Notes under the pieces: generated by a model
Databases searched by the model: none
What the model was told of the DNA's origin: nothing
What the model saw: only the letters and a program-made list of their open reading frames with translations
Source: a bacterium
GTDB taxonomy: Bacteria; Zhuqueibacterota; Zhuqueibacteria; Residuimicrobiales; Krinioviventaceae
NCBI GenBank assembly: GCA_963675755.2
Contig: CAXXMD010000002.1
Coordinates: 2,048,001 to 2,112,000 of the forward strand
DNA length: 64,000 nt
Direction of reading: 5' to 3'
Shown: piece by piece, positions 38,310-59,930 of the stretch
How the letters are laid out: each line of letters opens with the position of its first letter
How positions within the stretch are numbered: position 1 is the first letter of the stretch
Made by a program: the position numbers and the translations under genes

Positions 38310-38632
38310 CACCGGTGCCTGAGTGCGAGTCCGTATAGCGGACGAGTGTATCGAAGGCCCGGTTCATTCAACATCCAATAACAACAAATAATTTGATCGC
38401 TCGGCATATTCATGCCGGGCGGAATATTCATCCGGGACATTCGTCCCGCTGGGTTTCACTCAATGGATCTCACGGTAAAATCTTAATCCAGATTTTTAAA
38501 TTCAGGATAAACAGTGTTTATCCTGTCCTTTCCGTCCAAAACCAGAGTTTTTAAAGGAGTAATGTCGAGCGGAATATTCGGCCCTTTTCCTTCGATACAT
38601 CCGTCCGCAAGCTGGCGGACGGGATGCCTGGG
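38310..38632. repeat. Composite repeat block: family A (38310-38363), family B (38394-38448), 57-bp unit (38445-38501), inverted family A (38589-38632)
   Basis: 38394-38632 recurs in the same order at 40408-40767. Confidence 0.85.
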
Positions 38633-38694
38633 GTATATTAATTCAGGTAACATCCATTTTCGACCAAAATCAGCATATAGAACAGAAGAAACTC

Positions 38695-39534
38695 TCAGTT
38701 TTTTTTTGTTACATAAACACATCGAAAGCCGATAAACTCCATTTCCAGACTTTTATCATCAGCATAACTGCGATATCCCGTATGTGAGTAAAAAGCACAA
38801 TTTTTATTAATGGATGCACCACGAATCACCTTAACATATCCTTCTTTGGGGCCAAGTGGATTTTTAGAAGTGGATTCGAAATAATAATCCCTGCTGAACC
38901 AGTCCATACACCACTCCTGTACATTTCCTCCCAAGTCATATATACCGTATTTATTTGGCGGAAATTGTCCTACAGGTTCAAGATTATAATCCTGACAATT
39001 ATCCTGCCCCATTATCAGTTCATCTCCCCAGGGATACAAGTAATCCTTACCACCTTTGGCTGTTTTCTCCCACTCTGCTTCTGTAGGTAGACGCTTTCCA
39101 TAAAACTTTGCATATTCAAAGGCATCCTGCCAAGTAACTCCATATACTGGGTAATCTTTCATTCCCGGTTCAAAATGATCTTTCCAATTACCTTTGGGAG
39201 TATACCCGGACTTTTCAACAAATTTCAAATATTGACCAAAGGTTACCTCATATTTATCAATATAAAAATCATCAATCCATACCTTATGTTTCGGTTGCTC
39301 ATCTTTAAACCAGTCTAAACTAGAAAAACCAGGAGCTTCATTTACTATGTATTCAGCCCGTTCTTCAGTTATTCCCATTTCAAATTGACCAGCAGGTATT
39401 AACACCATGTCATTTAATCTGGGATTCTTTTGATTTTGTGAACAATTATTAAAAAATAATACAATAAACACTAATGAAATAATTTTATAATCATTCATTG
39501 CTACCCCTATAGTTTTGCTGTTAAACAAGATCAT
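38695..39534 (-). CDS. FGE-sulfatase (SUMF1) domain lipoprotein (start probably 39498)
   Basis: MVLIPAGQFEMG, KYEVT, RLPTEAEWEK, YPWG, DLGGNVQEW and IGFRC motifs. Confidence 0.9.
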   Translation of the reverse strand: MILFNSKTIGVAMNDYKIISLVFIVLFFNNCSQNQKNPRLNDMVLIPAGQFEMGITEERAEYIVNEAPGFSSLDWFKDEQPKHKVWIDDFYIDKYEVTFGQYLKFVEKSGYTPKGNWKDHFEPGMKDYPVYGVTWQDAFEYAKFYGKRLPTEAEWEKTAKGGKDYLYPWGDELIMGQDNCQDYNLEPVGQFPPNKYGIYDLGGNVQEWCMDWFSRDYYFESTSKNPLGPKEGYVKVIRGASINKNCAFYSHTGYRSYADDKSLEMEFIGFRCVYVTKKN

Positions 39535-39549
39535 GGCCTAATGGATAAT

Positions 39550-39948
39550 TTATAAATGCCAAATGCGCAAACCTTTTATATATTCAAAATGTTTATCGAA
39601 TGTTATTAAAGTTGACCCAATTTCCATTGCATGCGAAGCAATCCAGATATCCTGAATAGGAATAGGTGTTCCTGAAAGTTTAAGATCGTTTTTGATCATA
39701 CTAAAATACTCGGCAGTTTCCAATGTTGAATTTAATAACTGAACGGTAGGTTTTTCCAAAAATTTATTCAGGATTTCACGATTTTGTATCTCTTTACTAC
39801 CACCCCGAAATCCGTAATATAGTTCAGCAATAACAAAAACAGACATGTATACCATTTCTGCATTTGAAATCGCCTCTAACACAATTTTATTGCCTGCCAG
39901 CAAATGACTATACGCATTAGTATCAATTAATAAACGTTTCATTTCCAT
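39550..39948 (-). CDS. vapC: PIN-domain toxin, VapC family
   Basis: LLIDTN, AELYYG, DIWIASHA and LITFDKHF motifs. Confidence 0.93.
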   Translation of the reverse strand: MEMKRLLIDTNAYSHLLAGNKIVLEAISNAEMVYMSVFVIAELYYGFRGGSKEIQNREILNKFLEKPTVQLLNSTLETAEYFSMIKNDLKLSGTPIPIQDIWIASHAMEIGSTLITFDKHFEYIKGLRIWHL

Positions 39949-40211
39949 TGATCCGGTTCAATTTCACGGAGTTCTGCTGTCTTTTGATCAAACACATTTG
40001 CCTCATCTTTAGACCAAACACCACAAAACTCTGAAAAATCCTGTTTTCTTTTATTCAAGCCAAGAGCATCGTACAAAAGCATTTTTATAGTCTTGTTCAG
40101 ACTTGCACCGTTTTTTCTAGCCAATTCTTCAATTTTTCTACTTGCTTGACTATCAATATTATGTACAGTTATAGATTTCATGCCACACCTATGAATCAAT
40201 TTATGGTTCAA
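39939..40211 (-). CDS. Antitoxin (ribbon-helix-helix-like, VapB-type; start probably 40181)
   Basis: MKSITVHNID...LARKNGASLNKTI; overlaps the vapC start. Confidence 0.8.
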   Translation of the reverse strand: MNHKLIHRCGMKSITVHNIDSQASRKIEELARKNGASLNKTIKMLLYDALGLNKRKQDFSEFCGVWSKDEANVFDQKTAELREIEPDQWK

Positions 40212-40348
40212 AATACACTAAAAAATAGTTCAATATATATTTAAATGCAAGTATTTATTTAATTATCTCAAGTCACTATTATTAGCAACGCTTATTGAAA
40301 ATCCAAAGCAAGAAGCAACCTCAGAAATCCCCCATTCGCTTAATTTCT

Positions 40349-40811
40349 CCCGCTGGCTTTTACTTAATGGACCTCACAGTAAAACCTTAATCCAGATTTT
40401 TAAATACCGATCGCTCGGCATATTCATGCCGGGCGGAATATTAATCCGGGACATTCGTCCCGCTGGCTTTTACTTAATGGACCTCACGGTAAAACCTTAA
40501 TCCAGATTTTTAAATTAAGGATAAACAGAGTTTTGGATGGAGTAAAAAACACCATTCTACTTGTTGACATGAAAACAGTAAATCATTAATCAAATTTTCT
40601 GTTTCATCCGAGCAAATCCGTGGCTAAATAAATGGGTTCCAAGGCAGAGCCTTTGAACCAGATAATATATACAGCGTTTTAGACAGAGTATTATCGAGCG
40701 GAACATTCAGGCCCTTTTCCTTCGATACATCCGCCCGCCATCTGACGGACGGACACTCTGGAACCGGGCCTCGTTTTTTTTCTGATAACTGATTACTGAA
40801 TACTGACTACT
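40349..40811. repeat. Composite repeat block: 57-bp unit x2 (40349-40405, 40459-40515), family B (40408-40462), ATCCGTGG box, GGTTCC/GAACC hairpin (40635-40659), inverted family A (40719-40767), heptamer tract (40782-40811)
   Basis: Direct comparison with 38394-38632 and the other spacers. Confidence 0.85.
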
Positions 40812-40817
40812 TTTGCT

Positions 40818-43800
40818 TCACGGCAAAATCATCCACGACGGAGGAAACGCCTGCTTTTCATATCCCGGCCCCTCAAAATAAAAATCCATGGACTCAGAGC
40901 CAACAACCTCATAATAGAACAAGTCCAAATCATGACGACCTTTGTCCAACTGGATCTTGCCGGAATTAATACGTTTAGCATGCGCGCCTGCGTCATAAAC
41001 AATCGTCTTGCCGTCTATTTTCAACACACACCCGTCATTGGCATCACCATAAAAGGTATAAACACCGGGTGTCATAATATCAAATTTACCCTCAAAACGG
41101 ATTGCCACCTGATCACCCCGCCTGTCAATCTTGTTTACGTCAAACTGAAAAGTTTTTCCGGTAGATGCCACTGTAAACTCGTAGGTCTCGGGATCAGGAC
41201 CCAAATCGCCCCACTCTCCATGATACACAGTATACGCAATACCATTTACAGCAGGATCAATAAAACGGACATTGGCAGATGCAGGATAACTGGTTATAAA
41301 TCCCTCTTTGACCATAATCGCCTGAATGGTGCAGTTTTCTTTAATCTCTACCGGACCCGTATATTTCTCAGATTCTACAGTAGGCTCGCTTCCATCCAAT
41401 GTGTAATACACATCCGCATGATTTGTAGCCCGAATGGGTATGTATGCTGTATCATGAATGTGATACAATGTATCCACCTTGTCAATAATCGGTACAGGTA
41501 AACGGACCGGCTTTATCAACTCTGCGGCTCCCTGGGACTTGAATGTATATTTCCCTGAACCCACGTTGTAAACCGCTCTATTGTCCTCTGTTCTGACAAA
41601 TTGGGCGGCATCACTATTGACTGACACCAGCTCCTCGCTCGTTGCAGGTACATAAATTGTTGCCGTTGTATTGACAGGTATTTCTACATCCATTTTCAGG
41701 TTGCCCTTTTTATCAAGCTTCCAATGGCTTTTGATCATACCGTAAAATGTTTCTGTCCCGGCGTTCACATAGGTCAAATCCCCACAAAGAACGGGTTTGA
41801 TGATTATGTGCTTGAATCCCGGATTTTCAGGATCCGGATTAATACCTGCCGGTGCTTTAAAGAACCAACGGATTGTGCTTCCATACATAGGGTGACTGTG
41901 CGAAAGCTTGCCGTCCCAATATTCCCACAGCGTAGTAACGCCTTTGCCAAGGATATAGTGACCATAGCTGGGAAAATCATGCTGGTTCATCATCATAAAC
42001 GCAAGGTCTTCTCGACCCATTTCCGTCAGCATTTCCATTACAAGCGGCAGACCCAAAATACCGGTATCCAGATGTTCACGATTTTTAACAACATTCTCTA
42101 CCATGCTGTCAAAAACACCATCAATATTCTCTTCTTTTACCATACCAAATGCCAATGGAAACGCATCCGCGCCCTGGTAACTGGTCCAGTATTGTTGATT
42201 TTCTTCATTATAATACCGCTTGTCCAGTGCAGTTTTTATCTTTTCCATGAGGGCCAAATGTTCATCACGGTCAGCGGCTTTACCCAGCACATCCGCGGTC
42301 TGGGCCACCAGCTTTGCACAGAAATAATAATAACTGGTATTCACCAAAGGTTCCGGCAATTCCATGGGATAAGGAGTAGCCCAATCTCCCAGGCACCATG
42401 CGTTTGGTTCTTCCCGAACGACAATTCCATCCTTGTCTGTGCGAGTACCCAGGTATTCCACCCACTGCTTCATACCTTTATAATGTTTCTGCAATATCTG
42501 TGTATCACCATAATAGACATAATAGTACCAGGGAACAATTACATACGCTGAACCCCATGCAGGGCCACCGCCTCCGCCTTCATACGGAGCGGTATGTGGA
42601 ACAAATCCGGTTTTCTTGTTACGGGCATCGTCAATATCGTTTACCCATTTGTCATAAAACCGGGTCATGTCAAAATTAAAAATAGACGACTCTACCAGAA
42701 TCGATCCGTCACCAGTGTAGCCCAAACGTTCGCGGTGCGGACAATCACTGCTAAAGCTGCCATGCATATTGCCCAACTGGGTACGGATATAATTCTCATG
42801 GATCTTGTTAAACAGCTCGTTCGAGCAGTTGAAATAACCTACTGTATCCATAACAGTATTTACAACCCGCCCGCTGATGCTGTTTAGGTCGAGTGGAACG
42901 GACGATCCCCGGATCTCAACAGTCCTGAACGCATGCCAGGTAAAACTGGGTTCCCAGGTTTCCTGCCCGCCTTTACACATATACTGATCACCCTGGCTGT
43001 AATCGCTGCCCAGTTCTTCGATAAAACGCAAATGCAATGTATCTCCGCGATTACCGTTAATGTTCAATTTTACCCAACCCGAGAACATGTGTCCAAAGTC
43101 ATAGACATAAACATTATCTTCCGTATGTCTTACCGCAACCGGTTTTACGGTATTGATAATACCGTCCCTTGGCGCAAGCTGGGGCTGCAGTTTGCCATCC
43201 GGTGCTTTTAATAGATTGGCCTGCTGCCAACCCGATGCATCGTATCCCGCTGAACTCCAGCCGGGCATTTCCATACGGGCATCATAGTATTCACCGGAGA
43301 ATAGTCCGTTATGACGAATGGGTCCCTCTGTGGTAAATTTCCACGTATCATCACTCACTACCCGTTGACGTTCACCATCGGCATAATCAATTTCGATCTG
43401 CATGATAAATCGTGGTGTATTGTACCACATTCTGCCCTCGGCACCCCGGTCACGTTGATTATACCAGCCATTGCCAAGAACAATTCCCACAGCATTGGCG
43501 CCCTGCTCAAGCTGACTGGTTATATCATATATATTGTAGAAAACCCGTGTAGAGGATTGATCATCGTAATGATAGATCAAACCCGAAAGATTGCGTTTTT
43601 CATAATTGGTCTGCGCGGGGACCAGTTCGTCATTACCGGTCTCGCTTCCGTTCAAAAACATTTCATAATATCCCAAACCCGTAACATAAACCCGAGCTTT
43701 TTTAATGGGCTTGTTAATAGTAAATTCTTTGCGGAACCACGGGGCCGGGCCGGTTTTCTTCTCGACAGGTTCTTTGATTTCCGATACCCCCACCCATTTT

Positions 43801-44237
43801 GCCTGCCAGTCAGCAGGGTTTATCAGGGCCATCTCCCATTTAGCGGTTTCACTCCATTCAGATTCTGCACCCTGCTCGTCCCACACCTGTACTTTCCAGA
43901 ATACCTGTTGGCGTGAATTCAATTCTTTACCACCCCAGGGAATGTTTACGGATTGGTCCGAATCCACCTTACCGCTGTCCCACAAATCCGCGGAACCTTC
44001 TGTTAACAGATCAGGACTGCTTGCCGCCAGGATATGATATGCGGTCTGGATGCGATTGTACCCGCCTGCTGCCAGTTTCCAGCTTAATCGGGGAGTAGCG
44101 CTGTCAATCCCCAACGGATCGCTTATATATTCGCAACGCAGATCGTTGACCTGCATGGATTTATTCATGGATTGACAACCGGAAAATAAAAATACCAACA
44201 TCAGTACAAACAGCAAGACAGGAATGGTCTTTTTCAT
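40818..44237 (-). CDS. GH78 alpha-L-rhamnosidase lipoprotein with Fn3-like and PA14 domains (paralog 2)
   Basis: Same motifs as the 34691 copy. Start set at MKKTIPV (44237) by identity with paralog 3. Confidence 0.92.
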   Translation of the reverse strand: MKKTIPVLLFVLMLVFLFSGCQSMNKSMQVNDLRCEYISDPLGIDSATPRLSWKLAAGGYNRIQTAYHILAASSPDLLTEGSADLWDSGKVDSDQSVNIPWGGKELNSRQQVFWKVQVWDEQGAESEWSETAKWEMALINPADWQAKWVGVSEIKEPVEKKTGPAPWFRKEFTINKPIKKARVYVTGLGYYEMFLNGSETGNDELVPAQTNYEKRNLSGLIYHYDDQSSTRVFYNIYDITSQLEQGANAVGIVLGNGWYNQRDRGAEGRMWYNTPRFIMQIEIDYADGERQRVVSDDTWKFTTEGPIRHNGLFSGEYYDARMEMPGWSSAGYDASGWQQANLLKAPDGKLQPQLAPRDGIINTVKPVAVRHTEDNVYVYDFGHMFSGWVKLNINGNRGDTLHLRFIEELGSDYSQGDQYMCKGGQETWEPSFTWHAFRTVEIRGSSVPLDLNSISGRVVNTVMDTVGYFNCSNELFNKIHENYIRTQLGNMHGSFSSDCPHRERLGYTGDGSILVESSIFNFDMTRFYDKWVNDIDDARNKKTGFVPHTAPYEGGGGGPAWGSAYVIVPWYYYVYYGDTQILQKHYKGMKQWVEYLGTRTDKDGIVVREEPNAWCLGDWATPYPMELPEPLVNTSYYYFCAKLVAQTADVLGKAADRDEHLALMEKIKTALDKRYYNEENQQYWTSYQGADAFPLAFGMVKEENIDGVFDSMVENVVKNREHLDTGILGLPLVMEMLTEMGREDLAFMMMNQHDFPSYGHYILGKGVTTLWEYWDGKLSHSHPMYGSTIRWFFKAPAGINPDPENPGFKHIIIKPVLCGDLTYVNAGTETFYGMIKSHWKLDKKGNLKMDVEIPVNTTATIYVPATSEELVSVNSDAAQFVRTEDNRAVYNVGSGKYTFKSQGAAELIKPVRLPVPIIDKVDTLYHIHDTAYIPIRATNHADVYYTLDGSEPTVESEKYTGPVEIKENCTIQAIMVKEGFITSYPASANVRFIDPAVNGIAYTVYHGEWGDLGPDPETYEFTVASTGKTFQFDVNKIDRRGDQVAIRFEGKFDIMTPGVYTFYGDANDGCVLKIDGKTIVYDAGAHAKRINSGKIQLDKGRHDLDLFYYEVVGSESMDFYFEGPGYEKQAFPPSWMILP

Positions 44238-44413
44238 AGAGTCCCTCAAAATTTTAACAGAAAAGTGTATTTTTAATAAAATCAATTTTTACAAATTAAG
44301 CAAAGGTAATAATTCAACAATCTGGTTCTCAGTACCTGGTCATCAGTTTTCAGTAAAGGCTCAAGATATGGGTCTATTACAATAGTAATATATCTAATAA
44401 AGATAGTTTTTTT

Positions 44414-44450
44414 CTGACTACTGACTACTGACTACTGATAACTGATTACT
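44414..44450. repeat. Heptamer tract
   Basis: CTGACTA CTGACTA CTGACTA CTGATAA CTGATTA CT. Confidence 0.85.
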
Positions 44451-44461
44451 TTTCCCATCTA

Positions 44462-47400
44462 TTATTTCCCGTCTCCGGGAATTGTCATCCACTCTGGTGG
44501 GAACATTTGCTTTTCAAATCCCGGACCTTTGAAATTAAAATCCATACTTTCAGAACCGGTTACTTCATAATAAAACAAGTCCAAATCATGACGGCCGGCT
44601 TTTAGGTCTATTTCATCAAATTCTTTACGTGCAGCATAAGCACCCGCATCATATACCACCGTTTTTCCATCGATTTTCAGTACACAACCATCGTTGGCAT
44701 TCGCATAAAAAGTATATTTACCCGGTGTTTTTATATCAAATGAACCCTCAAAGCGGATAGCCACATAATCACCGCGCCTCTCAATCTTGTTCACATCAAA
44801 TTCAAAGGTCTTGCCGGTAGATGCCACTTTGTATTTATCAGATTCCGGATCAGGACCCAAATCGCTCCATTCTCCCTCATAAACCGTATAAGCAATTCCA
44901 TTTACAGCAGGATCAATAAATCGGACCTTGTCGGCTCTATCATAACTGTTTATAAATCCATCTTTAATAGCAACCGCCCGGATTATTGTATTGTCTTTAA
45001 TTTCTAAAGGTCCGGTATATTTAATGGAATTCCCGTCAGGTATGCTGCCATCAAGAGTATAATAGATATCTGCATTATTACTGGCAGAAATCTCTATATT
45101 CGCTGTATTGGGTTTAAAGTAAAGCGTATCCACATTTGTTATAATAGGAGTGGGCAAATGTACGGGCTTCATCAATTTCGCTGCTCCCTGGGACTTGAAT
45201 GTATATACCCCTGATCCCACCTTGTAAACCGCTTTATTGTCCTCAATTCTGACAAATTGGGCGACCTCACTATTGACTGACACCAGCTCCTCGCTCGTTG
45301 CAGGTACGTAAACAGTTGCTGTTGTATTGACAGGTATTTCCACATCCATTTTCAGGTTGCCATTTTTATCGAGTTTCCAATTGCTCTTGATTAGGCCGTA
45401 AAACGATTCGGTCTGTGTATTCACAAAAGTCAAATCACCACACAGTATGGGTTTGATGATGATGTGCTTGAATCCAGGATTGGCAGTATCAGGATTAATA
45501 CCCCCAAGCCCTTTATAAAACCATCGTATCACACTGCCAAACATGGGGTGACTGTGAGAACTTTTACCACTAAATTCTTCCCACAAGGTGGTTACCCCTT
45601 TACCCAGTATATAATTACCAAAACTCGGAAAATCACGCTGGTTCATCATCATAAACGCAAGATCTTCACGTCCCATATCTGTTAATACTTCCAGTACAAG
45701 CGGTGTACCCAAAATACCGGTATCCAGATGCTCACGGTTCTTGACAATATTTTCAACCATGCTGTCGAAAACACCATCAATATTCTCATTTTTAACCATA
45801 CCAAATGCCAATGGAAAAACATCCGCGCCCTGATAACTGGTCCAGTATTGTTGATTTTTTTCATTGTAATAGCGTTTATCCATTGCAGATTGAATTTCAT
45901 CCAATAGTGCCGAATAATGGTCTCTGTCTTTAGGTTTGTCAAGAACATCGGCAATCTGTGCAACCAGTTTTGCGCAATAATAATAATAACCGGTATTCAC
46001 CAATGGTTCGGGCAGTTCTATCGCCTCGGGAGTAACCCAATCACCCAGGCACCATCCGTTTGGTTCTTCACGCACCACAATGCCTTCCTTGTCTGTGCGT
46101 GTCCCCAAATAGTCCACCCATTGTTTCATACCTTCGTAATGCTGCTGCAATATTTGTGTATCGCCATAATAAACATAATAAAACCAGGGAACAATCACAT
46201 ATGCCGAACCCCATGCAGGTCCACCGCCTCCACCTTCGTACGGAGCGGTATGCGGAACAAATCCGGTTTTCTTGTTACGGGCATCATCAATATCATTTAC
46301 CCATTTGTCATAAAACCGGGTCATGTCAAAATTAAATATAGATGATTCAACCAAAAGTGATCCGTCACCGGTGTACCCCAGACGTTCACGGTGCGGACAA
46401 TCACTGCTAAAGCTGCCATGCATGTTGCCCAACTGGGTACGAATATAGTTATCGTGTATTTTATTAAACAGCTCGTTCGAGCAGTTGAAATAACCTACTG
46501 TATCCATAACGGTATTTACAACCCGCCCGCTGATGCTGTTTAGGTCGAGTGGAACGGACGATCCCCGGATCTCTACCGTCCTGAACGCATGCCAGGTAAA
46601 GCTGGGCTCCCAACTCTCGCTGCCACCCTTGCATATATACTGATCAGCCTGATTGTAATCGCTGCCCAGTTCTTCGATAAAACGCAAATGCAATGTATCT
46701 CCACGATTCCCGTTTATGTTCAACTTTACCCATCCCGAGAACATGAGTCCAAAGTCATAGACATAAACATTATCTTTTGTATGTTTGACGGATACCGGTT
46801 TTATCGTATCAATAATGCCGTCTCTTGGCGCAAGTTGAGGATACAGCTTGCCATCCGGTGCTTTTAACAGATTGGCCTGCTGCCAGCCAGACGCGTCAAA
46901 ATCCGCAGTGCTCCAGCCGGGCATTTCCATGCGGGCATCATAATGCTCGCCGGTGAATAGTCCATCATGACGAATGGGCCCCTCTGTGGTATACTGCCAG
47001 GAACGATCACCAACCAGAGTTTGACGTTCACCATCCTTATATTCGATCTCCAACTGTAGAAAAAATCTCGGTGTATTGAACCACATACGTCCTTCAGATA
47101 CCCGATCACGTTGATTGTACCAGCCATTGCCCAGCACAATTCCAGCCGCATTCTTGCCCTGTACGAGCTGGCTGGTTACATCATAAATATTGTACAATAC
47201 CCGGGTAGTAGATTGATCATCATAATCATAAATCAGTTTTGTCAAATCTCGCTTTTCATAATTAGTTTGCGCGGGGACCAGTTCGTCATTACCGGTTTTG
47301 CTGCCATTCAAAAACAATTCATAATATCCCAAACCGGTAACATAGACGCGGGCTTGTTTAACGGATTTGTTAATTGTAAATTCTTTACGAAACCATGGGG

Positions 47401-47893: not shown

Positions 47894-48007
47894 AGAGTCC
47901 CTTAATTTTTTACAGGTGAGTGTTTTTTTTAGAATAAAACCAATTTTTACGATTTTTGCAAGATATAAAATTTAATATAGGATAGGTTGTTTTTATATTG
48001 TGGTTTA

Positions 48008-49735: not shown

Positions 49736-51391
49736 ATGTTTTACGCATTCTTAGCTGTGCTCCCGATTTTGACCGCCGCGGTCCTGCTGGTCGGATTTCG
49801 TTTACCCGCCAAATACGCCATGCCCATCGTATTCATTATCGCCATTGCCGTTTCCATGCTGTTCTGGCATGTACAATGGATTGTTGTACTTGCTTCCAGT
49901 ATACAGGGATTGTTTATCACCTTTGACATTCTCTATATCATTTTTGGGGCAATCCTGTTGTTAAATACGCTAAAATATTCAGGGGCTATATCCGCAATCC
50001 GCGCGGGATTCTCTCACATCAGCGATGACCGGCGCGTTCAGGTAATTATTATCGCCTGGCTGTTTGGTTCGTTTATAGAAGGTGCATCAGGCTTTGGTAC
50101 ACCCGCTGCTATTGCAGCCCCTCTGCTGGTCGCACTCGGCTTCCCGGCCATGGCCGCAGTCATGATAGGCATGATGATACAAAGCACCGCCGTTACATTC
50201 GGTGCCGTGGGTACCCCCATCCTCATTGGCGTTAATGGCGGACTAGAAAATCCTGAACTCCTGGCCCAACTAGCCGCATCCGGTCATAATATGCAATGGC
50301 TGCTGCTCAATATCACTACCTATTCAGCAATTTTTCATGCCATCACCGGCACACTGATCCCTCTGCTCATGGTTGTCATGATGACACGTTTTTTCGGAGA
50401 GAACCGCTCCTGGAAAGAAGGTTTATCCATCACCCCGTTTGCAATTTTAAGCGGACTGGCATTTACTGTCCCCTATGTTCTTACCGGCGTGTTATTGGGA
50501 CCCGAGTTCCCCTCGCTTTTAGGCGCATTGATAGGATTGCCTCTGGTCACCTGGCTTGCACATAAAAAAATCCTGATTCCGCAAGACAAATGGGATTTCC
50601 CCAAATCCAACACCTGGCCTGCAGAATGGCTGGGCAAGATAGAGATCAAACCCGAAACCAATCCATCCAACAAAATTTCCTTTGCCGCTGCCTGGGTGCC
50701 CTATTTATTTGTAGCATTATTTCTGGTATTGACCCGCCTGCCTCGTCTCGGTATAGGCGCCTTTTTGAAAACCGCTGCCATCAAATGGACACACATTTTG
50801 GGAACGCCTGTAACCGCAGCATCCACCCCCCTGTATCTGCCGGGTTCCATCTTGTTGCTCGTGGTATTGATCACCGTATTCCTGCACCGCATGGATTTCA
50901 AAGCATTAAAGTCTGCGGTAACCGATTCAGTTAAAATCCTGTTCAGCGCAGGATTCGTCCTCGTATTTACCGTCCCCATGGTACGGCTCTATATCAATTC
51001 TGGAATCAACCCGGTAGACATGTCCAGCATGCCCGTTACCATGGCGCAATGGGTAGCGGATTCGGTGGGAGGCATTTGGCCCTTTTTCGCCCCGACCATT
51101 GGCGCTCTTGGAGCATTCATTGCCGGCAGCAATACCATCAGTAATCTCATGTTCAGCCTGTTCCAGTATAGTGTAGCAGAACGACTCCTGATCTCCGGCA
51201 CCATTACTGTTGCATTGCAGGCCGTAGGTGCCGCAGCCGGTAACATGATCGCCATTCACAACGTAGTAGCCGCATCAGCGACTGTGGGACTCCTGGGCAA
51301 AGAAGGCGCAGTCCTAAGAAAAACCATCATCCCCACTCTGTATTACCTCACAGTAGTAGGCTTGCTGGGATTGATCGCTGTTTATTTATAG
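49736..51391 (+). CDS. lctP: L-lactate permease
   Basis: [44 protein letters not shown] and [12 protein letters not shown] motifs. Start moved to ATG 49736; the ORF-track extension reads through a repeat tract. Confidence 0.92.
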
Positions 51392-51409
51392 ATTATATCA
51401 ATTATTTAA

Positions 51410-51752
51410 TGTAGGGACCGATCTGAGACCGGTCCCTACAAATCCCCAATTCCTCACTTGATCGCGATGCAGATTCCTGCATCGCGGAATATACACATGG
51501 GACATTCGTCCCAAATCATGATCTAACACATTCACCTATGGAATATATAACAGCTTGTAGCTTTCCGTCTCACATCTGCCGTCTTGCGTTTCTTCTGAAT
51601 ACTGAGCACTGATAACTTGATCGCGGTGCAGATTCCTGCATCGCGGAATATTGCTACGGGACATCTGTCCCGTTTTTCTGCATCTATCCGTGGCTAAAAG
51701 CTAATAGCTTATTAATGACAGCTTTTCTTCTGAATACTGAGCACTGATAACT
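51410..51752. repeat. Composite repeat block: GTAG-type REP (51410-51440), family B x2 (51459-51512, 51618-51672), ATCCGTGG box, heptamer tracts
   Basis: GTAGGGACCG...CGGTCCCTAC; TGATCGC-hairpin-GGAATAT-GGGACATnnGTCCC; CTGAATACTGAGCACTGATAACT occurs twice. Confidence 0.88.
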
Positions 51753-51753
51753 T

Positions 51754-53226
51754 TTATTTCCCCTCCGGCAACTCTACATCTTTACAATTCCGGGTCTGAA
51801 TCGGTGTTTTTGCAAGCAGACTCACATCATCCATTTTCCAGTTCACAGCATTGGTAATCTTGCCGCCATTCTGTGCTTCAATAGACACACGTTCCCAAAC
51901 CACATCCCGGATGGGTTTTTCTTCATACGCATTGGCATAAATCCCGATCCCCGCATTGGTTGCGGTTACATCCGAAATCCGGATATCATAAAACTCGGGA
52001 ATGCCCCGTTCCGGCGGATCGACTTTTGTCAGCATGGCTTTCCAGTGCGCCGGCCATTCCGATTCCGGAATATGCTCGGGACGCGGGGGATAACTGTATT
52101 CGGGAAACCAGTTCAACTCCCAATGAAACGGATTTTTCACACTGTCCATTTGGATATCATGAAACCAGACATTGCTGATCACACCGCCGCGCACCTTGGC
52201 GGATTTAAACCGGATACCGTTATTAGTCCCTCTGGCATCCAATCCGTACACTTCAATATTGTGCATCCCTCCCGAAGTCTCGCTGCCCAGGGTAATCAAA
52301 CCATGCCCCTTGCCGGTGATGCAATTGCGGACCACTATATTTTCAGCAGGACGGTTAACACGTAATCCGTCTGCGTCTCGTCCCGCTTTTAAACAGAAAT
52401 TATCATCATTACAGTCTATATCACAATCCTCAACCAATATATCTTGAGAAGAATCTATGTCAATGCCATCTGTACTGGGTCCATGCCCGCCAATGTTATT
52501 CCGAATGACAAGACCCTTTACATATACCCGCTCGCTGTAGGTCATGGTAACGGTCCAGAATCCCGACCGCTTGACCGTAAAGTCTGTCAAGCGCACATTT
52601 TTCGACTCGTACACAACAACGGGACGTACACGCTTTGCATCATAATCCACTGCCCAGCGCATGTTCTGTTGAGTATATGGTTCCAGCAGGGTAAAAAACT
52701 TGTCCCACCAGAATTTGCCGTTGCCGTCAATCATCCCCTTGCCCGTCACATGCGCATTTTCTACCTGGTAAATATTAATCAACGCCACGGGCCAGTCCAT
52801 TTCAATCCCCGCAATGCGTGTCCATTTGTCCGGAAATTCTTCATCCTTGTTTACAGCCTTTAGCACAACACCCGCATCCAGTCGCAGCTCTACATTGGAT
52901 TTGAGGAACAATGCCCCGCTCAAAACCGTACCTTCCGGCAGCGTTACAATCCCTCCGCCGGCGGCACTGGCCGCGTCAATAGCGGATTGGATCTGCTTTG
53001 TATTGATGGTCTTTCCATCCGCAACGGCACCATAATTCTCAGCGGCAAACACCGTCTGCGGTACTTGTCCAAAATTCGCATCATAAAAAATGGATTCCAG
53101 TTGCATCACCAGCTCACTCTTGCCGGATGAAACAGGCTCTCCACTCTGCGATTTACATAATAGAATAAATGGAAGAAAAACTACTAAACTCAGCCCCATC
53201 CACTTTTTCAGAGAAATAGTAACCAT
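51754..53226 (-). CDS. GH28 polygalacturonase-family glycoside hydrolase
   Basis: Intact motifs STDG, NDD, GHG and RFK; LGSETSGG. Confidence 0.92.
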   Translation of the reverse strand: MVTISLKKWMGLSLVVFLPFILLCKSQSGEPVSSGKSELVMQLESIFYDANFGQVPQTVFAAENYGAVADGKTINTKQIQSAIDAASAAGGGIVTLPEGTVLSGALFLKSNVELRLDAGVVLKAVNKDEEFPDKWTRIAGIEMDWPVALINIYQVENAHVTGKGMIDGNGKFWWDKFFTLLEPYTQQNMRWAVDYDAKRVRPVVVYESKNVRLTDFTVKRSGFWTVTMTYSERVYVKGLVIRNNIGGHGPSTDGIDIDSSQDILVEDCDIDCNDDNFCLKAGRDADGLRVNRPAENIVVRNCITGKGHGLITLGSETSGGMHNIEVYGLDARGTNNGIRFKSAKVRGGVISNVWFHDIQMDSVKNPFHWELNWFPEYSYPPRPEHIPESEWPAHWKAMLTKVDPPERGIPEFYDIRISDVTATNAGIGIYANAYEEKPIRDVVWERVSIEAQNGGKITNAVNWKMDDVSLLAKTPIQTRNCKDVELPEGK

Positions 53227-53306
53227 AATTTACTCCTTAAATTAATACTTGTAAATATATTGAATATTCTTAAACGAGTCAACAATCTCAACTTGAATAT
53301 TCACAA

Positions 53307-53478: not shown

Positions 53479-53580
53479 AAAAAAACACTTGCATCGATAT
53501 AACCAATCTATTATATTTAATCAGGGCCAAGGGGCAGATACGGAAGGATCAATTTACTACATATTCTTTGGGAGAGAACC

Positions 53581-56097
53581 ATGACCAAGCGTAACTATTT
53601 TGTACGTATTGTAGTGTTTGTTCTTTTGTATCTGCCATTCATTACCTATCCACAACACATCACAGACATCCTCGTCAACACCGAACCGGATTCCAACGCT
53701 TTCAAAGCCACATCCACCTCTCTGCATGTGCTTTCACCGGAAAAATTTATAGTTATTTGGAATGATGATCGTTGTGATCACAGAATGGCCTGGGCAAACA
53801 TCCTCAATGAAAATGCAGATATTCTTTATGATGACTTTATGGTCCCAGGGGGAGATGACATTTCAGTTTACGAGGATAGTTATACGGTTTTAGGTTCCTA
53901 CTACAACCTTACTCCCGTTATGGAAACACATGAAGGTTATTATCAACATTTCAATAACAATCAACCGATATCAGAACCTACCTCATTATATTCCGAATAT
54001 GTTGGCATGTGTGGAACAGGCTTTACAGGAGAAGGATTAGCAATGACGCGCACATCCTGGGGAAATGTCTATGTTCATAATTCGGGGGGTGCTATATATT
54101 GGGCAACACAAAATGAAATGCTGGGCACAACACAATCCAATTGGAATATCTTTTATCACCCGGATTCATTAAGCAATAATGATAGAACAACAGATGCAGA
54201 ACATTTTTCACTATTCCCATCCACAGATAATAGTTTTGCCTGGTGTGTAATCAGTCGTTCCAATTACTGGTGGTACGGGCCCAGAGAAAACCAGTTACTT
54301 TTATGCAAAATAGATCAAACCGGTTCAACAAAAAAAACAAAAATCGTTTTAAACGACACGCTTTCAACCGATTGGGGCTTTTCAAAATGGTTGCATGCTG
54401 AAACTGAAAACGACTCTTCTATTGTAATTTTCTGGGCAAAAAAAGATTCCCTTATCGAAACCCATATTGATACCAGCGGACAAGTAAAAAGTTATCAGGC
54501 GTTTCTACCTTTTCCAGAAGATAATGTGAATGATCCCGGATATCACGAATTGTCTACTTTTCATCTGAGCAATAAACAAAACGGGACCATGTTTCTTTAT
54601 ATAGGTATTATAAATCAACTTAAAAAAATAACAATTCAAAATAATCATATCACCAATATTTCTGAATCTATTACAGACTTTGAGAATTATGGTACACTCA
54701 ATTTGTCAGACCGTTTTTTTCAAAATTCAGCAGGAGACTTGTTTTTTGTAGCAATAAAAAATAATGATCCGGTTCTTTACAAATCTTCAGGAAGCACATT
54801 TCAACCTTGCAATAACCTGTCTTTTACCGGTAACGGAGCAAGTCAAAACACTCCTGGAATATTCAAAAAAACCAACAACAGCTTTGCCATTAGATATACC
54901 GAGTCCGACAAATACTATAAATCTGTTTATATGAACATGGACGGAGAAAGAGATCAACCACCATTATCCTGGCCCGTTCCCGGTAGTCTGCTCTTTAACA
55001 ATGGAGAAGAACTTTTACATTTAAATATTGAATATTTCAGCGGTCCGGATTATGTAACCCTGCACAAATTCAATGCCCTTGATGGTTCACTATTATTGGA
55101 AAAATTCTTACGACCTCATTTAAACACATTTACGTATGGCAAATTAAATGATGATCAGTTTTTTGTTTTTCAAACGCAGCAGGATTATCAAAACAAAATT
55201 TCTATTTTCAATACCAATGGTACATTAATAGACTCATTGGTTTTTGAAAAATATAAAAAAGAACATGACAATCTTACAGTATATCGTATGCCCAGTGGCA
55301 AGTTCTGGTTGAATGATAGAAACTATGCCCTTTGGGACCCGATAAATAAAACGGTCCGGTACACGCCCAAAGTAAAGAAATACAATACCCCACTCAACGA
55401 TTCTCTGTTTTTAGATTTATCAATTAAAAAAATTCAAAACGAATACACAATCAATTTAGTTTTAATTGATACAAGCAATATCGAGTTGATGTCAAATCAC
55501 ATATCATTTCAAGCGGAATACGGTTCTTATTCCTACCCCATATTGATAAATGATGCCTATTTTATACTACCCTATAGAATAAACAACCAATATATGTTCA
55601 ACATTTTCAACTTGAATTTGGAAACGGAATGCTTGCATCCCCAGGAAATATTCCCCAATGCTTCTCCTTATCTGACAAACTTTACGCGCAAACGCATCGG
55701 CAACCACATCGTCTTTGCCTGTACCGATATCCGCGATACTGAAACCGGACAAAATGTCTATGCCAGCATTTTCAACATTAACGATCTCATCACCGGCATT
55801 GACGATGCCCCCAAATCCCAGCAGGTGCCGAGCCGGTTCAGTTTGTCCGAACCCTCACCCAATCCCACCAAAGCGGGACAATCAATCACCTTTCAACTGG
55901 ATATACATAAACAATCCAAAATGGATTTTCAATTGTACAATATTCTGGGACAACGAATCCAAACTTTTAACCGGCAATTCAACGAGGGGCAACAGTCCGT
56001 CAGGTTCCAACTGCCCAATCTGGCCGCCGGTGTCTATTTTCTCAAAGCAACAGACAACCAGCAGGCCATTATCAAAAAAATCGCAGTGATACGATAA
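53581..56097 (+). CDS. Large secreted protein with a C-terminal T9SS-like sorting domain (paralog 1)
   Basis: Signal peptide; C-terminal PSPNP...LYNILGQ...LAAGVYFLK...KKIAVIR. Confidence 0.8.
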   Translation: MTKRNYFVRIVVFVLLYLPFITYPQHITDILVNTEPDSNAFKATSTSLHVLSPEKFIVIWNDDRCDHRMAWANILNENADILYDDFMVPGGDDISVYEDSYTVLGSYYNLTPVMETHEGYYQHFNNNQPISEPTSLYSEYVGMCGTGFTGEGLAMTRTSWGNVYVHNSGGAIYWATQNEMLGTTQSNWNIFYHPDSLSNNDRTTDAEHFSLFPSTDNSFAWCVISRSNYWWYGPRENQLLLCKIDQTGSTKKTKIVLNDTLSTDWGFSKWLHAETENDSSIVIFWAKKDSLIETHIDTSGQVKSYQAFLPFPEDNVNDPGYHELSTFHLSNKQNGTMFLYIGIINQLKKITIQNNHITNISESITDFENYGTLNLSDRFFQNSAGDLFFVAIKNNDPVLYKSSGSTFQPCNNLSFTGNGASQNTPGIFKKTNNSFAIRYTESDKYYKSVYMNMDGERDQPPLSWPVPGSLLFNNGEELLHLNIEYFSGPDYVTLHKFNALDGSLLLEKFLRPHLNTFTYGKLNDDQFFVFQTQQDYQNKISIFNTNGTLIDSLVFEKYKKEHDNLTVYRMPSGKFWLNDRNYALWDPINKTVRYTPKVKKYNTPLNDSLFLDLSIKKIQNEYTINLVLIDTSNIELMSNHISFQAEYGSYSYPILINDAYFILPYRINNQYMFNIFNLNLETECLHPQEIFPNASPYLTNFTRKRIGNHIVFACTDIRDTETGQNVYASIFNINDLITGIDDAPKSQQVPSRFSLSEPSPNPTKAGQSITFQLDIHKQSKMDFQLYNILGQRIQTFNRQFNEGQQSVRFQLPNLAAGVYFLKATDNQQAIIKKIAVIR

Positions 56098-56152
56098 CCA
56101 ACTCCCGTCCATGAGCGAGCGTCCCTCGGGGGGATAACTTTAAGGAAGAACA

Positions 56153-58579
56153 ATGAAAAATATTTTAAATTACTCAATACTATTACTTTTACTAGTACAT
56201 ATAAATGCATCAGCACAACACATCACAGACATCCTTGTCCACACCGAACCGGATTCTAACGATTTCAATGCCACCTCTACTTCCCTGCATGTGCTTTCAC
56301 CGGACAAATTTATGGTTATTTGGCTTGATGATCGTGGAGTTCCTGATCAGGCATGGGCAAATATCTTTGATCAAAATGGAAATGAATTGTATACACCCTT
56401 TAAAGTTCCGGGAGACACATATGTCTCGGCTGAAGATGATAAATATACCATCCTTAGTAAATATTACTCACAATCGGGATTCTTGGAAAACTATGATTTC
56501 CAACATTTTCAAAACGATACAAATATTACGAAACAAAAAGAGATTGAATCTATTTTTTATAATCCATGTGATTATTTTAATCCAATTGAAAAGTTTGAAC
56601 TTTATCGAACACAAGAAAGAAACATCTGGATCAAAAATAACTGTGGTTCTATAAATATTGCAATTCAAGATTCACATTTCTCAACTTTAATTCCTGATTT
56701 TTATCCACTATACATAGATTATTGGGATAATGAAAACAATCATGGTTACGAAGAACTCGTATCAAATTATTCGATAGCACAAAATGATGATAAAAGCCAA
56801 TCATGGATGCTAACACTTCACCCTGGAGTATTTTTAGATTTAATTGACATTGACAAACCGAGCCATTCAGATCTTATAGCAAAAAAAATATACCTGGACT
56901 CTATAGATTACGATTTTGAGCAATATTGGGCAAATGCTCAGATGATAACAGATAGCACTATCTTGTTCTTATGGGCAACAAGAGATACACTAAGAACAAT
57001 ACAACTGGATACAAGTAGTACAATTCTTGAAAAACAAAATTATTATATTGGTGACGAACAATACTATAGCGATATCTATCACATAAGCAATGAGTCAAAT
57101 AATATAAAATATTTGCTGGCAGGAAACCACTTTCGGGCAAAAATTATTAAAATTAAAGATGATCTGGTTGAATCCATATCTGATAATTATCTCGATTTGC
57201 CTCAATCGTTGAACCGCAAAAAGTTCACACAAATATTTTTAAATGAAAACGAGGAAATGTTTCTCCCAGCTGTTGATAACAATCAGGCAAAGCTATTCAA
57301 AATTAAAAATAATTCAATTTCACAGTTTAAAACGTTAAAAGCTCCTGATACCGGGGCCAACCAGGAATGCTCACATATTCGTTCTATTGACGATAATAAT
57401 TTTGCAGTCACATTTAAAGAGTCAGGTGTCTCTAAAACAGCTAAAATGTCAGTTTACGGCACCATTATTAATCAGGAAATGGATTTACCATCAGCCAATG
57501 GAATGTTTTTCAATAATGGGACAGAACTCGTAACTCTAGTCAAAAATATGGAATCTAATATTTTACAGATGAAAAAATATGATTTACAAACAAATACTAT
57601 ACTTTTAGAAAAAACACTGTTTGACTCTACTCTCACTTTTTATTTTGAAAAGCTAAATGATTCATCATTTGTTGTTTTTAATCTATTGGAAAACAGGATT
57701 CATTTTGCATTATTTAATTCTAACGGAGATATAATAGGTGAAACAAGTATCCTCAATCCATTTAACAACGGTGAACAATTTATAATAGCAAAATTACCTG
57801 ATACTAAAATCTGGTTTCATTCAAATTTTAATTATTTTTTATTTGATCCGCAATCATTTAGCGTTCAATCATTTTCGGGTTTATATGGGCAATCAAAATT
57901 TTTCCCGGTTACTGAATCCAAACTTGTCAATCACAGAAATGGTACGTTTACAATCATTGACACATCAGGAACGATTTTAAAACAACTCGAAACCTCATTC
58001 AATTATTATGGATCATTGAATGTTCTTCCTCTAAATGATGATACATTTTTGTTTAATTCTGCTTATTCAGCTAAATTTCAACTAATTACAACTGAATTAG
58101 AGTTTTACACACAAAGCACGCTAAGCTGTTTTCCGAAAAGAACTTTATATAACATGACTGATTTCACATATGAACGCATCGGCAACCACATCGTCTTTGC
58201 CTGTACCGATATCCGCGATACTGAAACCGGACAAAACGTCTATGCCAGTATTTTCAATATAAACGATCTCATCACCGGCATTGACGATGCCCCAATATCC
58301 CAGCAGGTGCCGAACCGGTTCAGCTTGTCCGAACCCTCACCCAATCCCAGCAGAGCGGGACAATCGATCTCCTTTCAACTGGATATACATAAACAATCCA
58401 AAATGGATTTTCAATTGTATAATATTCTGGGACAACGAATCCAAACTTTTAATCGGCAATTCAACGCGGGGCAACAGTCCGTCAGGTTCCAACTGCCCAA
58501 TCTGGCCGCCGGGATCTATTTTCTCAAAGCAACGGACAGCCAGCAAGCCATTATCAAAAAAATCGCAGTTGTTCGATAA
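56153..58579 (+). CDS. Large secreted protein with a C-terminal T9SS-like sorting domain (paralog 2)
   Basis: Shares the mature N-terminus QHITDILV.TEPDSN and the last ~135 aa with paralog 1. Confidence 0.8.
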   Translation: MKNILNYSILLLLLVHINASAQHITDILVHTEPDSNDFNATSTSLHVLSPDKFMVIWLDDRGVPDQAWANIFDQNGNELYTPFKVPGDTYVSAEDDKYTILSKYYSQSGFLENYDFQHFQNDTNITKQKEIESIFYNPCDYFNPIEKFELYRTQERNIWIKNNCGSINIAIQDSHFSTLIPDFYPLYIDYWDNENNHGYEELVSNYSIAQNDDKSQSWMLTLHPGVFLDLIDIDKPSHSDLIAKKIYLDSIDYDFEQYWANAQMITDSTILFLWATRDTLRTIQLDTSSTILEKQNYYIGDEQYYSDIYHISNESNNIKYLLAGNHFRAKIIKIKDDLVESISDNYLDLPQSLNRKKFTQIFLNENEEMFLPAVDNNQAKLFKIKNNSISQFKTLKAPDTGANQECSHIRSIDDNNFAVTFKESGVSKTAKMSVYGTIINQEMDLPSANGMFFNNGTELVTLVKNMESNILQMKKYDLQTNTILLEKTLFDSTLTFYFEKLNDSSFVVFNLLENRIHFALFNSNGDIIGETSILNPFNNGEQFIIAKLPDTKIWFHSNFNYFLFDPQSFSVQSFSGLYGQSKFFPVTESKLVNHRNGTFTIIDTSGTILKQLETSFNYYGSLNVLPLNDDTFLFNSAYSAKFQLITTELEFYTQSTLSCFPKRTLYNMTDFTYERIGNHIVFACTDIRDTETGQNVYASIFNINDLITGIDDAPISQQVPNRFSLSEPSPNPSRAGQSISFQLDIHKQSKMDFQLYNILGQRIQTFNRQFNAGQQSVRFQLPNLAAGIYFLKATDSQQAIIKKIAVVR

Positions 58580-58603
58580 ACACTTTTAACGAGGTATACA
58601 CGA

Positions 58604-59677
58604 TTGAAATTTGCTTTTTACATTTTAATATTGATCATAATTTTTATGGCGTGTTCATTACCTGTAGAAGAGGAATCCTCAGAATATTTCTATTATGAAT
58701 CTTTTATTTCGCTTATTTCAATAGATGGAGAAAATTTTGAAACGCTTGTAAATCATGCCGGTGGTGTGGAAGCAACAAGCGCGGATATATATTGGTTGGG
58801 TGATAAATCCCAATTTCTAGTGAACCGTGATGATCTATATATTTACGATCTTGAAGGAACGCTTGTTAAAGAAATCAGAATACCGGACTGTAATATTGAC
58901 ATTGATACTAGTCCCAATGGGGATAATATAGCTATTAGATGTGGCGGTGACGGTTCAGATTTGTACATAATTGACACAGAATCATTTAAAATGAAAAAAA
59001 TCACAAATACGCCATCAATTGTCGAACGTTACCCACGTTTCTCAAGTGATGGTAAAAAAATTGTATATGTATGCGTATTTGATAAAGAGGACCAAGAGAA
59101 GCCAGCTATCAAATTGTATGATATGGATTCAGACAGCTCGGTAACGCTGATAACGGTAAAAGAGGAGAACCTGCATTCCAATCCCTTTGTATCGCCCTGC
59201 TTTGGTAAAAATGATGAAATACTTTATTATATGAACAACTATAATAAAGAGATAAATTACTCGGGCACAACAACGCTTTACAGTTATAATTTAATTACCA
59301 GCGAAATATCCGAAATTGACAAGAATGCTATCTGGTTTACAAAAATGCAATATGCCCCGGCTGGTGACCGGTTAGTTTATCTCACGAGAGAACCATTCTG
59401 CGGAATCAAAGTATTTGATGCAAACACACAAAGCTTTTATAATTTGGGAGATAAAATCCATGAAGAATGTAGGGCCATTGGCCCCAATCAGATACTGAAT
59501 ATAAATTCTCAAGGTACGCATGTTATCGCAGGAACTGATTATTGTAGCAGCACCCATATATATGCAATAGATATTGAAAAAGCAGAATACAAAGAAATTG
59601 CTTTGGGTACATCACCCGCATTGAACAATGATGACAAGACAATTTTATTTGTAAAAACATTTAAAAACAAATACTAG
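58604..59677 (+). CDS. TolB-like (PD40) beta-propeller lipoprotein
   Basis: Lipobox FMAC; SPNGDNIA and PRFSSDGKKIVY motifs. Confidence 0.75.
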   Translation: MKFAFYILILIIIFMACSLPVEEESSEYFYYESFISLISIDGENFETLVNHAGGVEATSADIYWLGDKSQFLVNRDDLYIYDLEGTLVKEIRIPDCNIDIDTSPNGDNIAIRCGGDGSDLYIIDTESFKMKKITNTPSIVERYPRFSSDGKKIVYVCVFDKEDQEKPAIKLYDMDSDSSVTLITVKEENLHSNPFVSPCFGKNDEILYYMNNYNKEINYSGTTTLYSYNLITSEISEIDKNAIWFTKMQYAPAGDRLVYLTREPFCGIKVFDANTQSFYNLGDKIHEECRAIGPNQILNINSQGTHVIAGTDYCSSTHIYAIDIEKAEYKEIALGTSPALNNDDKTILFVKTFKNKY

Positions 59678-59699
59678 AGTTCATTTCCTCAATACAATT

Positions 59700-59930
59700 T
59701 GATCGCACGGCAATCCGACAACTTACGGATACCGTGTGGAATATATCATCGGGATATTTGTCCCGGATTACTGCATCCATCCGTGGTTTGATCGTGATGC
59801 AGATTCCTGCATCGCGGAATATTTATTTGGGACATTCATCCCGCTTGCCAGCATCCATCCGTGGCTAAAAGCTGATGGCTTATAGCTGACAGCTAACAGC
59901 TTTTCTTCTGATAACTGACAACTGATTACT
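59700..59930. repeat. Composite repeat block: family B x2 (59700-59765, 59789-59843), ATCCGTGG boxes, heptamer tracts (59870-59930)
   Basis: Same module order as 51618-51752. Confidence 0.88.

Follow-up and report, generated by a model that had tools for sequence, protein, structure and literature searches.

A two-hairpin, GATCG-footed repeat family in a genome of the Zhuqueibacterota, best read as a REP-type DNA element

Six copies in the window and the repeat unit

The window, i.e. the whole stretch of DNA analysed here, comprises 64,000 nucleotides (G000:C2:2048001-2112000) of a bacterial genome, G000, of 6.48 Mb in three contigs with 39–40% G+C. It contains a short repeat, family B, for which a preliminary description of the window had reported six same-strand copies, starting at 38394, 40408, 51459, 51618, 59700 and 59789. 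All six were confirmed at these positions, each on the + strand; the pattern GGAATAT-N4-8-GGGAYATYYRTCCC has six matches in the window, exactly these copies, and matched 0 of 100 dinucleotide shuffles. Family B is best read not as a new RNA but as a DNA-level repeat, selfish or domesticated, that belongs to a known class and takes an unusual two-hairpin form. A covariance model, R1, was built on 25 family B copies of G000, and the six units scored with it are given below, with their counterparts in the sister species G001 where these are single units.

38391..38451, + strand: unit 1, R1 74 bits; TGATCG foot, stem 1 CGCTCGGCAT/ATGCCGGGCG, GGAATAT, then GGGACATTCGTCCC; DNA fold -17.5 kcal/mol, z -5.0; between two minus-strand genes, as the left direct repeat flanking a 2-kb cassette
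40405..40465, + strand: unit 2, R1 72.1 bits; stem type as in unit 1, CGATCG foot; right direct repeat of the 2-kb cassette
51456..51516, + strand: unit 3, R1 79.5 bits; stem CGCGATGCAG/CTGCATCGCG; between convergent genes; kept in G001 (G001:C1:4211159-4211219)
51615..51675, + strand: unit 4, R1 79.6 bits; stem with one G-T wobble; 159 bp past unit 3; kept in G001 (G001:C1:4211286-4211346)
59697..59768, + strand: unit 5, R1 40.3 bits; interrupted stem 1 CGCACGG...CCGTGTG, hairpin 2 GGGATATTTGTCCC; DNA fold z -3.4; counterpart in G001 is a diverged copy
59786..59846, + strand: unit 6, R1 76.4 bits; tandem neighbour of unit 5, with which it shares the ending ...CATCCATCCGTGG

The unit is about 55–60 nt long and consists, in order, of (T)GATCG, a 10-bp hairpin (hairpin 1, formed by stem 1), GGAATAT, about 5 nt and GGGACAnnnGTCCC; the last is hairpin 2, GGGAC-N4-GTCCC, which is more conserved than hairpin 1. 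The conserved 5' flank had been given as TGAT, but copy 40408 begins with CGATCG, and the motif is best written GATCG, with its CG opening stem 1; GATCG is the foot of 24 of the 25 aligned G000 copies and GATTG that of one. The loops, described as conserved ATTC, also occur as ATCT or ATTT in hairpin 2. The variants of stem 1 are as described: type CGCTCGGCAT/ATGCCGGGCG in two window copies, with one T-G wobble; type CGCGATGCAG/CTGCATCGCG in three, two of which have a single G-T or T-G wobble; and a third form, longer and interrupted, in copy 59700.

Structure, number and placement in the genome

Four single units folded as single-stranded DNA gave two hairpins each, at -15 to -19.3 kcal/mol with z values of -3.4 to -6.7, and the folds were equally good on either strand. 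In the alignment of the 25 G000 copies, 98% of stem 1 cells are paired and 6 of the 10 pairs have changed on both sides, with 26 doubly changed cells as against 5.5 in shuffles, a number that 0 of 500 shuffles reached; when the partner columns were slid by 1–3, pairing fell to 27–50%. Hairpin 2 is almost invariant within G000. A cross-genus alignment was made of 24 copies from ten other genomes in nine genera (listed: G001, G003, G011, G013, G014, G016, G018, G023 and G025), and here 8 of 10 pairs in stem 1 and 2 of 5 in hairpin 2 were doubly changed, while pairing reached 93.8% versus 73.9% in shuffles, the alignment being fitted to the model, which favours the structure. Constant across genera are the GATCG foot, an ATWYY-like loop, CGG at the 3' base of stem 1 and the GGAC-N4-GTCC core of hairpin 2, whereas conservation of GGAATAT is limited to the window's genus. 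Selection acts on the structure of the unit, not on its sequence. Since pairing is kept while the sequence changes, both among the 25 copies and in other genera, the central observation of the preliminary description is correct and stronger than the window alone would make it; its term "fully covarying" overstates the case for the window, which holds two stem types and the extended form.

The family extends well beyond the window. A strict pattern for the 3' half of the unit matched G000 25 times (13 forward and 12 reverse; reversed control pattern, 0), an nhmmer profile from 26 copies matched 73 times, and R1 at E<=0.01 gave 78 matches (about 75 copies), with none in the 390-kb contig C1. Long open reading frames (ORFs) cover about 89–90% of G000, yet 54 of the 57 strongest nhmmer matches lie outside them. 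Relative to genes, 41 of these 57 are downstream of a co-oriented gene, 16 are placed the opposite way and 5 are between divergent genes; window copies 38394 and 40408 are antisense to both of their neighbouring genes, which are on the minus strand. Copies also occur in regional strand runs, all minus at C2:1.546-1.864 Mb and all plus at C2:2.086-2.333 Mb and C3:0.09-0.49 Mb; by GC skew, replication starts near C3:1.48 Mb and ends near C2:0.66 Mb.

These features bear on the possibility that the units are double-stranded palindromic sites for a host protein, for instance a regulator or a protein of the nucleoid, and are unconnected with transposition. As such sites would be, the units are palindromes in extragenic DNA, and hairpin 2 is nearly invariant in G000. 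However, stem 1 changes freely in sequence with complementarity kept, which a dimer reading the sequence would not tolerate, the copies are mostly at gene ends and seldom between divergent genes, and genes of RAYT enzymes (tyrosine transposases associated with REPs, or repetitive extragenic palindromes) are bracketed by the element in five genomes, as described below. We give this explanation almost no credence.

Most family B copies are single units, but about 10 pairs among the 78 R1 matches are tail-to-tail inverted doublets of about 120–135 nt, with the GATCG feet outward and inverted ends TGATCGC...GCGATCA. The second arm carries another stem (CCCGGCAT type) and an AGGAC...GTCCT hairpin. 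In the predicted fold the outer ends pair and one local stem 1 hairpin is kept; there is no single perfectly paired long hairpin, because the two arms carry different stem 1 sequences. Doublets and tandem arrays are found at the following sites.

C2:1361109-1361265, C2:1361302-1361441, C3:3443983-3444125, C3:3447722-3447899 and others: doublets (inverted pairs)
C2:1854156-1854823 and C3:3447247-3447899: tandem arrays

Doublets with inverted ends would also be expected of a miniature inverted-repeat transposable element (MITE), mobilised by a DDE transposase that recognises terminal inverted repeats, here the GATCG...CGATC ends, in double-stranded form. This origin is very improbable in our view: single arms outnumber doublets, a doublet has different stem sequences in its two arms with pairing kept, which suits recognition of a hairpin, and no target-site duplication was seen at the three family B doublets that could be delimited, which is a small sample (a fourth row of the target-site scan is a mixed pair, outside the family B count). 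The lack of duplication at these three fits a Y1 enzyme, and the gene between the elements in the five genomes is a Y1 RAYT, not a DDE transposase gene, although no systematic search was made for a full-length DDE element bearing such ends.

Family B is one of several GATCG-footed families in G000, where a search for GATCG with an ensuing stem of 9 bp or more gave 207 matches. The others include 1) a family with the stem CCGGGTAC/AGGACTTGAGTCCT; 2) perfect 31-nt palindromes, GATCGTGACGGAGA-N3-TCTCCGTCACGATC, which carry GATC at either end and have a variant GTGACAGAGA; and 3) a long-loop type. The palindromes of the second family, symmetric and double-footed, occupy about 40 sites of C3, e.g. 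478590, 953298, 1555732 and 1940711. Among the 2760 ends of 1380 perfect hairpins with stems of at least 9 bp, GATCG was the commonest foot (48 ends) after A/T-rich terminator-like ends. GATC itself is not avoided in G000, the ratio of observed to expected being 0.93.

Other short modules accompany the copies in the window. A T-rich module, ...CTTTTCTTCTGAATACTGAGCACTGATAACTT or a variant of it, found at 51585-51617, 51723-51755, 59897-59935 and 40775-40815, recurs beside family B copies as well as at the ends of minus-strand genes, and a module ...GCATCCATCCGTGGCTAAAAGC comes after copies 4, 5 and 6.

RAYT genes bracketed by the repeat

R1 matches on both sides directly bracket a RAYT/TnpA-REP gene in five other genomes, G018, G014, G130, G111 and G079, of which two are in the window's own family and the remaining three (G130, G111 and G079) in as many further families of this phylum. 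The G018 RAYT gene is bracketed by nine R1 matches at E<=1e-3 (a tenth is weaker), and the units there read ACGATCGTCCGGCATATTCATGCCGGACG..GGAATAGTCAAGGACATTTGTCCG, the stem of window copies 38394 and 40408. The RAYTs of G130, G111 and G079 are 62% identical to that of G018 by tblastn and have R1 matches immediately on either side; the gene in G111 has one internal stop. Seven loci were taken from the phylum-wide search, and the bracketed RAYT is present in three of them (those of G130, G111 and G079). L169-L174 were picked on R1 matches alone, before any gene search, on the basis of R1 clusters in G130, G111 and G079 and of high R1 scores in G059 and G125, while L175 (G010) was picked since its R1 matches lie a few kb from a RAYT of another type, that of P0001 (see below). 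In addition, G004 and G017 have a RAYT of the same clade flanked by the two-part design with a GCTCG foot.

The bracketed RAYTs share three motifs with variations: i) NH[IL]H in G014, G130, G111 and G079 and NHMH in G018; ii) WQDE[FY]H in G018, G111 and G079, WKDD in G014 and WTDE in G130; and iii) around the tyrosine, YIHNNP in G018, G130 and G111, YIHDNP in G014 and YLHENP in G079. Judged by these motifs and not by a tree, the clade may belong to subclass 2.6 of Quentin et al. 2018, to whose motifs the enzymes of G018, G111 and G079 and one RAYT of G000 (L156: NHLH, WQ and YIHNNP) come closest; a second RAYT of G000, L003, has NHFH and YIHYNP.

Family B has the features of REPs: a stem-loop in single-stranded DNA, dispersed extragenic copies, inverted dimers and arrays, and copies flanking RAYT genes, the last in five other genomes. 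We therefore consider it probable, at about 0.75, that family B is a REP-type element handled by a RAYT/TnpA-REP, a domesticated transposase of single-stranded DNA. The unit would fold when the DNA is single-stranded, an HUH/Y1 RAYT of the clade with NH[IL]H, WQ and YIHNNP (subclass 2.6-like) would recognise it via the foot and the hairpins, and cleavage and rejoining of single strands by this enzyme would bring about the spread and upkeep of the family. Of this scheme, we infer the binding, the cleavage, the strand used, the role of hairpin 2 and the enzyme acting in G000. The preliminary description had proposed an undescribed noncoding RNA or a recognition site in single-stranded DNA. Bracketing of HUH/Y1 RAYT genes by the same element in five genomes favours the second of these; copies on both strands, antisense copies, doublets and arrays, and the lack of an Rfam match speak against the first. 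The element is also not undescribed in kind, as REPs without GTAG that belong to this RAYT subclass appear in the portion of PMC6006769 covered here; a match to a known REP family, which had been named as refuting the claim of novelty, was thus found for the kind of element and not for its sequence.

G000 encodes four RAYT-like genes and one IS200-like gene. L003 (C3:340671-341201), with 116 bits against the NCBIfam model REP_Tyr_transpos (cut-off 80), is flanked directly by arrays of a sister repeat consisting of GATCG, a stem, GGAAyy and a small palindrome. This locus, C3:339365-343711, forms a REPtron in which the RAYT gene lies within more than 25 copies of GATCGTGACGGAG-loop15-CTCCGTCACGGAAyy and a partner arm, GATCGCAACGGAGA...TCTCCGTTGCG. 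The fourth RAYT, L156 (flanks of C2:1813559-1814083), is adjoined by other hairpins, unrelated to family B. Hairpins GGATAAACAGAGTTTATCC and TTCCGTCC...GGACGGA adjoin family B copies 1 and 2 (window ~38505-38560 and 40515-40535), and these types also flank L156; they are probably another REP family with its own enzyme.

P0001 (C2:1359648-1360193; REP_Tyr_transpos 177.7 bits, cut-off 80) has five R1 matches at E<=1e-4 within about 0.9–1.25 kb, the nearest about 0.9 kb away on either side. It was rejected as the main candidate for the cognate enzyme because i) it resembles the E. coli TnpA-REP (4ER8, E 3.5e-35); ii) a GTAG-footed hairpin (GTAGCCTGGGCC...) lies directly upstream, and its ortholog in G001 has one per side; iii) a convincing R1 match was found at 0/11 orthologous loci in relatives (best 16.9 bits), and any R1 match at all at 0/80 distant homologous loci; and iv) at least two GT[AG]G hairpins were present at 46/92 such loci, versus GATC hairpins at 2/92. 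A palindrome with a double foot, GTAG...CTAC (GTAGGGACCGATCTGAGACCGGTCCCTAC), is located in the window at 51411-51439, just past a lactate permease gene and 20 nt before family B copy 3, and GTAGGGACCGGTC... hairpins resembling it occur near C2:1907582 (+) and at one minus-strand site of C2; these look like GTAG REPs of a family with few copies, to which P0001 is perhaps the partner.

Two possibilities are left for G000: either L003 or L156, proposed because of the shared foot, serves family B in trans, or the population in this genus is an orphan one.

Persistence, distribution and relation to known systems

The window region is about 90–93% identical to that of G001, and many family B copies are at matching sites in the two genomes, with flanks 90–95% identical. 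Copies 51459, 51618 and 59700 are common to both, and G000 has one additional tandem unit, 59789. A 2.0-kb insert (38452-40404) that is missing in G001 lies between copies 38394 and 40408; G001 has a single copy there. The insert contains an FGE-sulfatase-like gene together with a PIN-domain gene and an ORF of 90 aa, the latter two possibly a toxin-antitoxin pair; a downstream module of 60 nt, GCTGGCTTTTACTTAATGGACCTCACGGTAAAACC..., has a duplicate at 40350-40405. Family B copies thus mark sites of rearrangement, with one cassette between direct copies and one tandem duplication. Elsewhere, one G001 copy (L055) is fully syntenic and a second (L026) lies at a synteny break. G001, rated 100% complete, has 54 R1 copies. 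Its ortholog of P0001 is 81–85% identical, split into ORFs of 107 and 68 aa and placed in a different neighbourhood beside an IS-like 370-aa ORF, and at the site matching L003 the RAYT gene and arrays are missing, with one doublet of the sister repeat left. These comparisons fit family B being a set of long-lived repeats, inherited vertically for the most part and serving as points of recombination.

Among relatives, R1 matches at E<=0.001 were found in 11/40 genomes; phylum-wide, at E<=1e-5, in 15/120 other genomes and 8/23 families; R1 was absent from 80 loci of distant phyla. Across the 40 relatives, P0001-type RAYTs and R1 matches occurred together in 6 genomes, the element only in 5 and the RAYT only in 3, while the corresponding counts for L003-type RAYTs were 6, 5 and 6. 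Such co-occurrence was set aside as evidence for an enzyme, as these numbers are weak and come from related genomes, which lack independence; since 34/41 genomes have some member of the RAYT family, the presence of the family as such is uninformative.

Several observations weigh against reading family B as a REP-type element. 1) None of the 25 aligned copies has the classical foot, GT[AG]G or CGTC. 2) No RAYT gene of G000 is directly bracketed by family B, and the G018 RAYT is only about 42–43% identical to L003 and 44% to L156, so that the enzyme acting in G000 is a presumed one. 3) In G001, searches with the G018 and L003 proteins and with the family model found no RAYT of the bracketing clade, and the 54 copies there persist without the presumed enzyme. 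4) No clean fresh insertion was seen between G000 and G001, in which four of the six window copies have a counterpart, and the differences between the two genomes look like recombination or tandem duplication. 5) The regional strand runs do not track the GC-skew replichores, and a replication-strand bias like that of IS200/IS605 was rejected. 6) At 29/41 intergenic sites, with clusters collapsed by hand, the unit is downstream of a co-oriented gene, which a role at the RNA level could explain as well.

REPs co-opted for roles at the RNA level are known, and a cis-acting RNA element, with mRNA hairpins serving as a 3'-end protector, a processing site or a noncoding RNA, would be compatible with a REP origin. 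The hairpins are stable on either strand, the stems covary, the downstream placement (41/57 matches) is as expected, and in G001 the family has been kept although the presumed enzyme was not found. As the primary explanation this is nevertheless improbable. Rfam gave no match at the gathering score for the whole window and none at E<=1 for window 51380-51800; 16/57 matches are reversed, among them the two antisense copies of the window, 38394 and 40408; RAYT genes are bracketed by inverted doublets and arrays, for which an RNA motif offers no reason; and the GATCG foot is outside the helix, as the feet of REPs are. A role at the RNA level may be a secondary use of family B.

Returning to the REP-type reading, the closest published counterparts are the REPs of subclass 2.6. 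In the portion of PMC6006769 covered here, Table 1 gives for these RAYTs NH[LIV]H, WQ, YIH[QN]NP and a length of about 179–180 aa, mostly in Bacteroidetes, and equates the subclass with group 5 of Bertels et al. 2017. REPs of subclass 2.6 and class 3 are stated to lack GT[AG]G, and those of subclass 2.6 are termed "atypical secondary structures". As with family B, the RAYT gene is flanked by hairpins without GT[AG]G that have copies elsewhere in the genome, and the part of Table S1 covered lists 5-nt feet (e.g. GCTAG, GCTGG and GCTCC) followed by stems of 8–10 bp and loops of 3–4 nt, much like hairpin 1; a Pedobacter entry, TTAAG...ACGT with a long loop, resembles the sister family around L003. 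Family B differs in its GATCG foot and host lineage, and in being a two-part unit with a second hairpin (GGAC-N4-GTCC type) about 13 nt downstream, whereas the entries covered are single hairpins only. "GATC" has 0 occurrences in the main texts of PMC3733652 and PMC6006769; "gatcg" occurs 7 times in Table S1 of the latter, and the two occurrences inspected are inside GTAG-footed Marinomonas REPs. A GATCG-footed two-hairpin unit was not found in the REP texts searched, with Table S1 covered in part, and relative to these texts the foot and the two-part unit are new.

Likenesses to classical REPs and bacterial interspersed mosaic elements (E. coli TnpA-REP 4ER8) and to GTAG- or CGTC-tagged REPs (Di Nocera 2013, PMC3733652, and Corneloup 2021, PMC8266576, in the portions covered) include short hairpins in extragenic DNA whose 5' foot is conserved, inverted dimers, mosaic arrays and copies flanking a single-copy Y1 gene. 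In E. coli, S. maltophilia and Marinomonas, the REP has been shown to be recognised as folded single-stranded DNA (PMC8266576). Family B differs in having no GT[AG]G/CGTC foot, two hairpins per unit and about 75 copies, versus the hundreds typical of REPs in Enterobacteria and Pseudomonas, and the E. coli-like RAYT of G000, P0001, has one or more separate GTAG hairpins of its own. With REPINs (Bertels and Rainey 2011, PMC3116915, as far as covered), family B shares inverted REP pairs with a spacer, proximity to RAYT genes and long-lived vertical inheritance, but in family B singlets dominate and the arms of doublets differ in stem 1. The ends of IS200/IS605 elements (e.g. IS608) likewise carry subterminal hairpins for a Y1 HUH transposase acting on single-stranded DNA; the foot of the hairpin bears a short guide-like motif, and the target is not duplicated. 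Family B, on the other hand, has no transposase gene inside, its units are 55–135 nt, and its strand choice is independent of the direction of replication.

To our knowledge, nearly all experiments on REPs concern GTAG-footed, single-hairpin REPs of Proteobacteria. In the present data, subclass 2.6-like REPs take on a definite layout: the foot, GATCG or GCTCG, is followed by a hairpin of variable sequence, a spacer and a second hairpin, which is conserved. At least five genomes keep this layout directly surrounding the enzyme gene, and two more have it with the GCTCG foot. Family B thereby offers a concrete substrate for studying how RAYTs recognise DNA without a GTAG guide. In annotation, R1 can mask units that would otherwise be mistaken for candidate riboswitches or small RNAs, and the best "novel RNA" candidate of the window is removed as a false lead. 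The genus of the window is a natural case in which to study whether REPs outlast the loss of their enzyme. Going further, it is conceivable, though we would not expect it, that the element is a RAYT substrate conserved across the phylum, in which a drifting address hairpin, footed by GATCG or GCTCG, is joined to a conserved GGAC-N4-GTCC module for recognition or cleavage, and that the family can outlive its enzyme. If so, the host would have taken the units over, e.g. for the protection of mRNA 3' ends or as recombination hot spots in the shuffling of cassettes.

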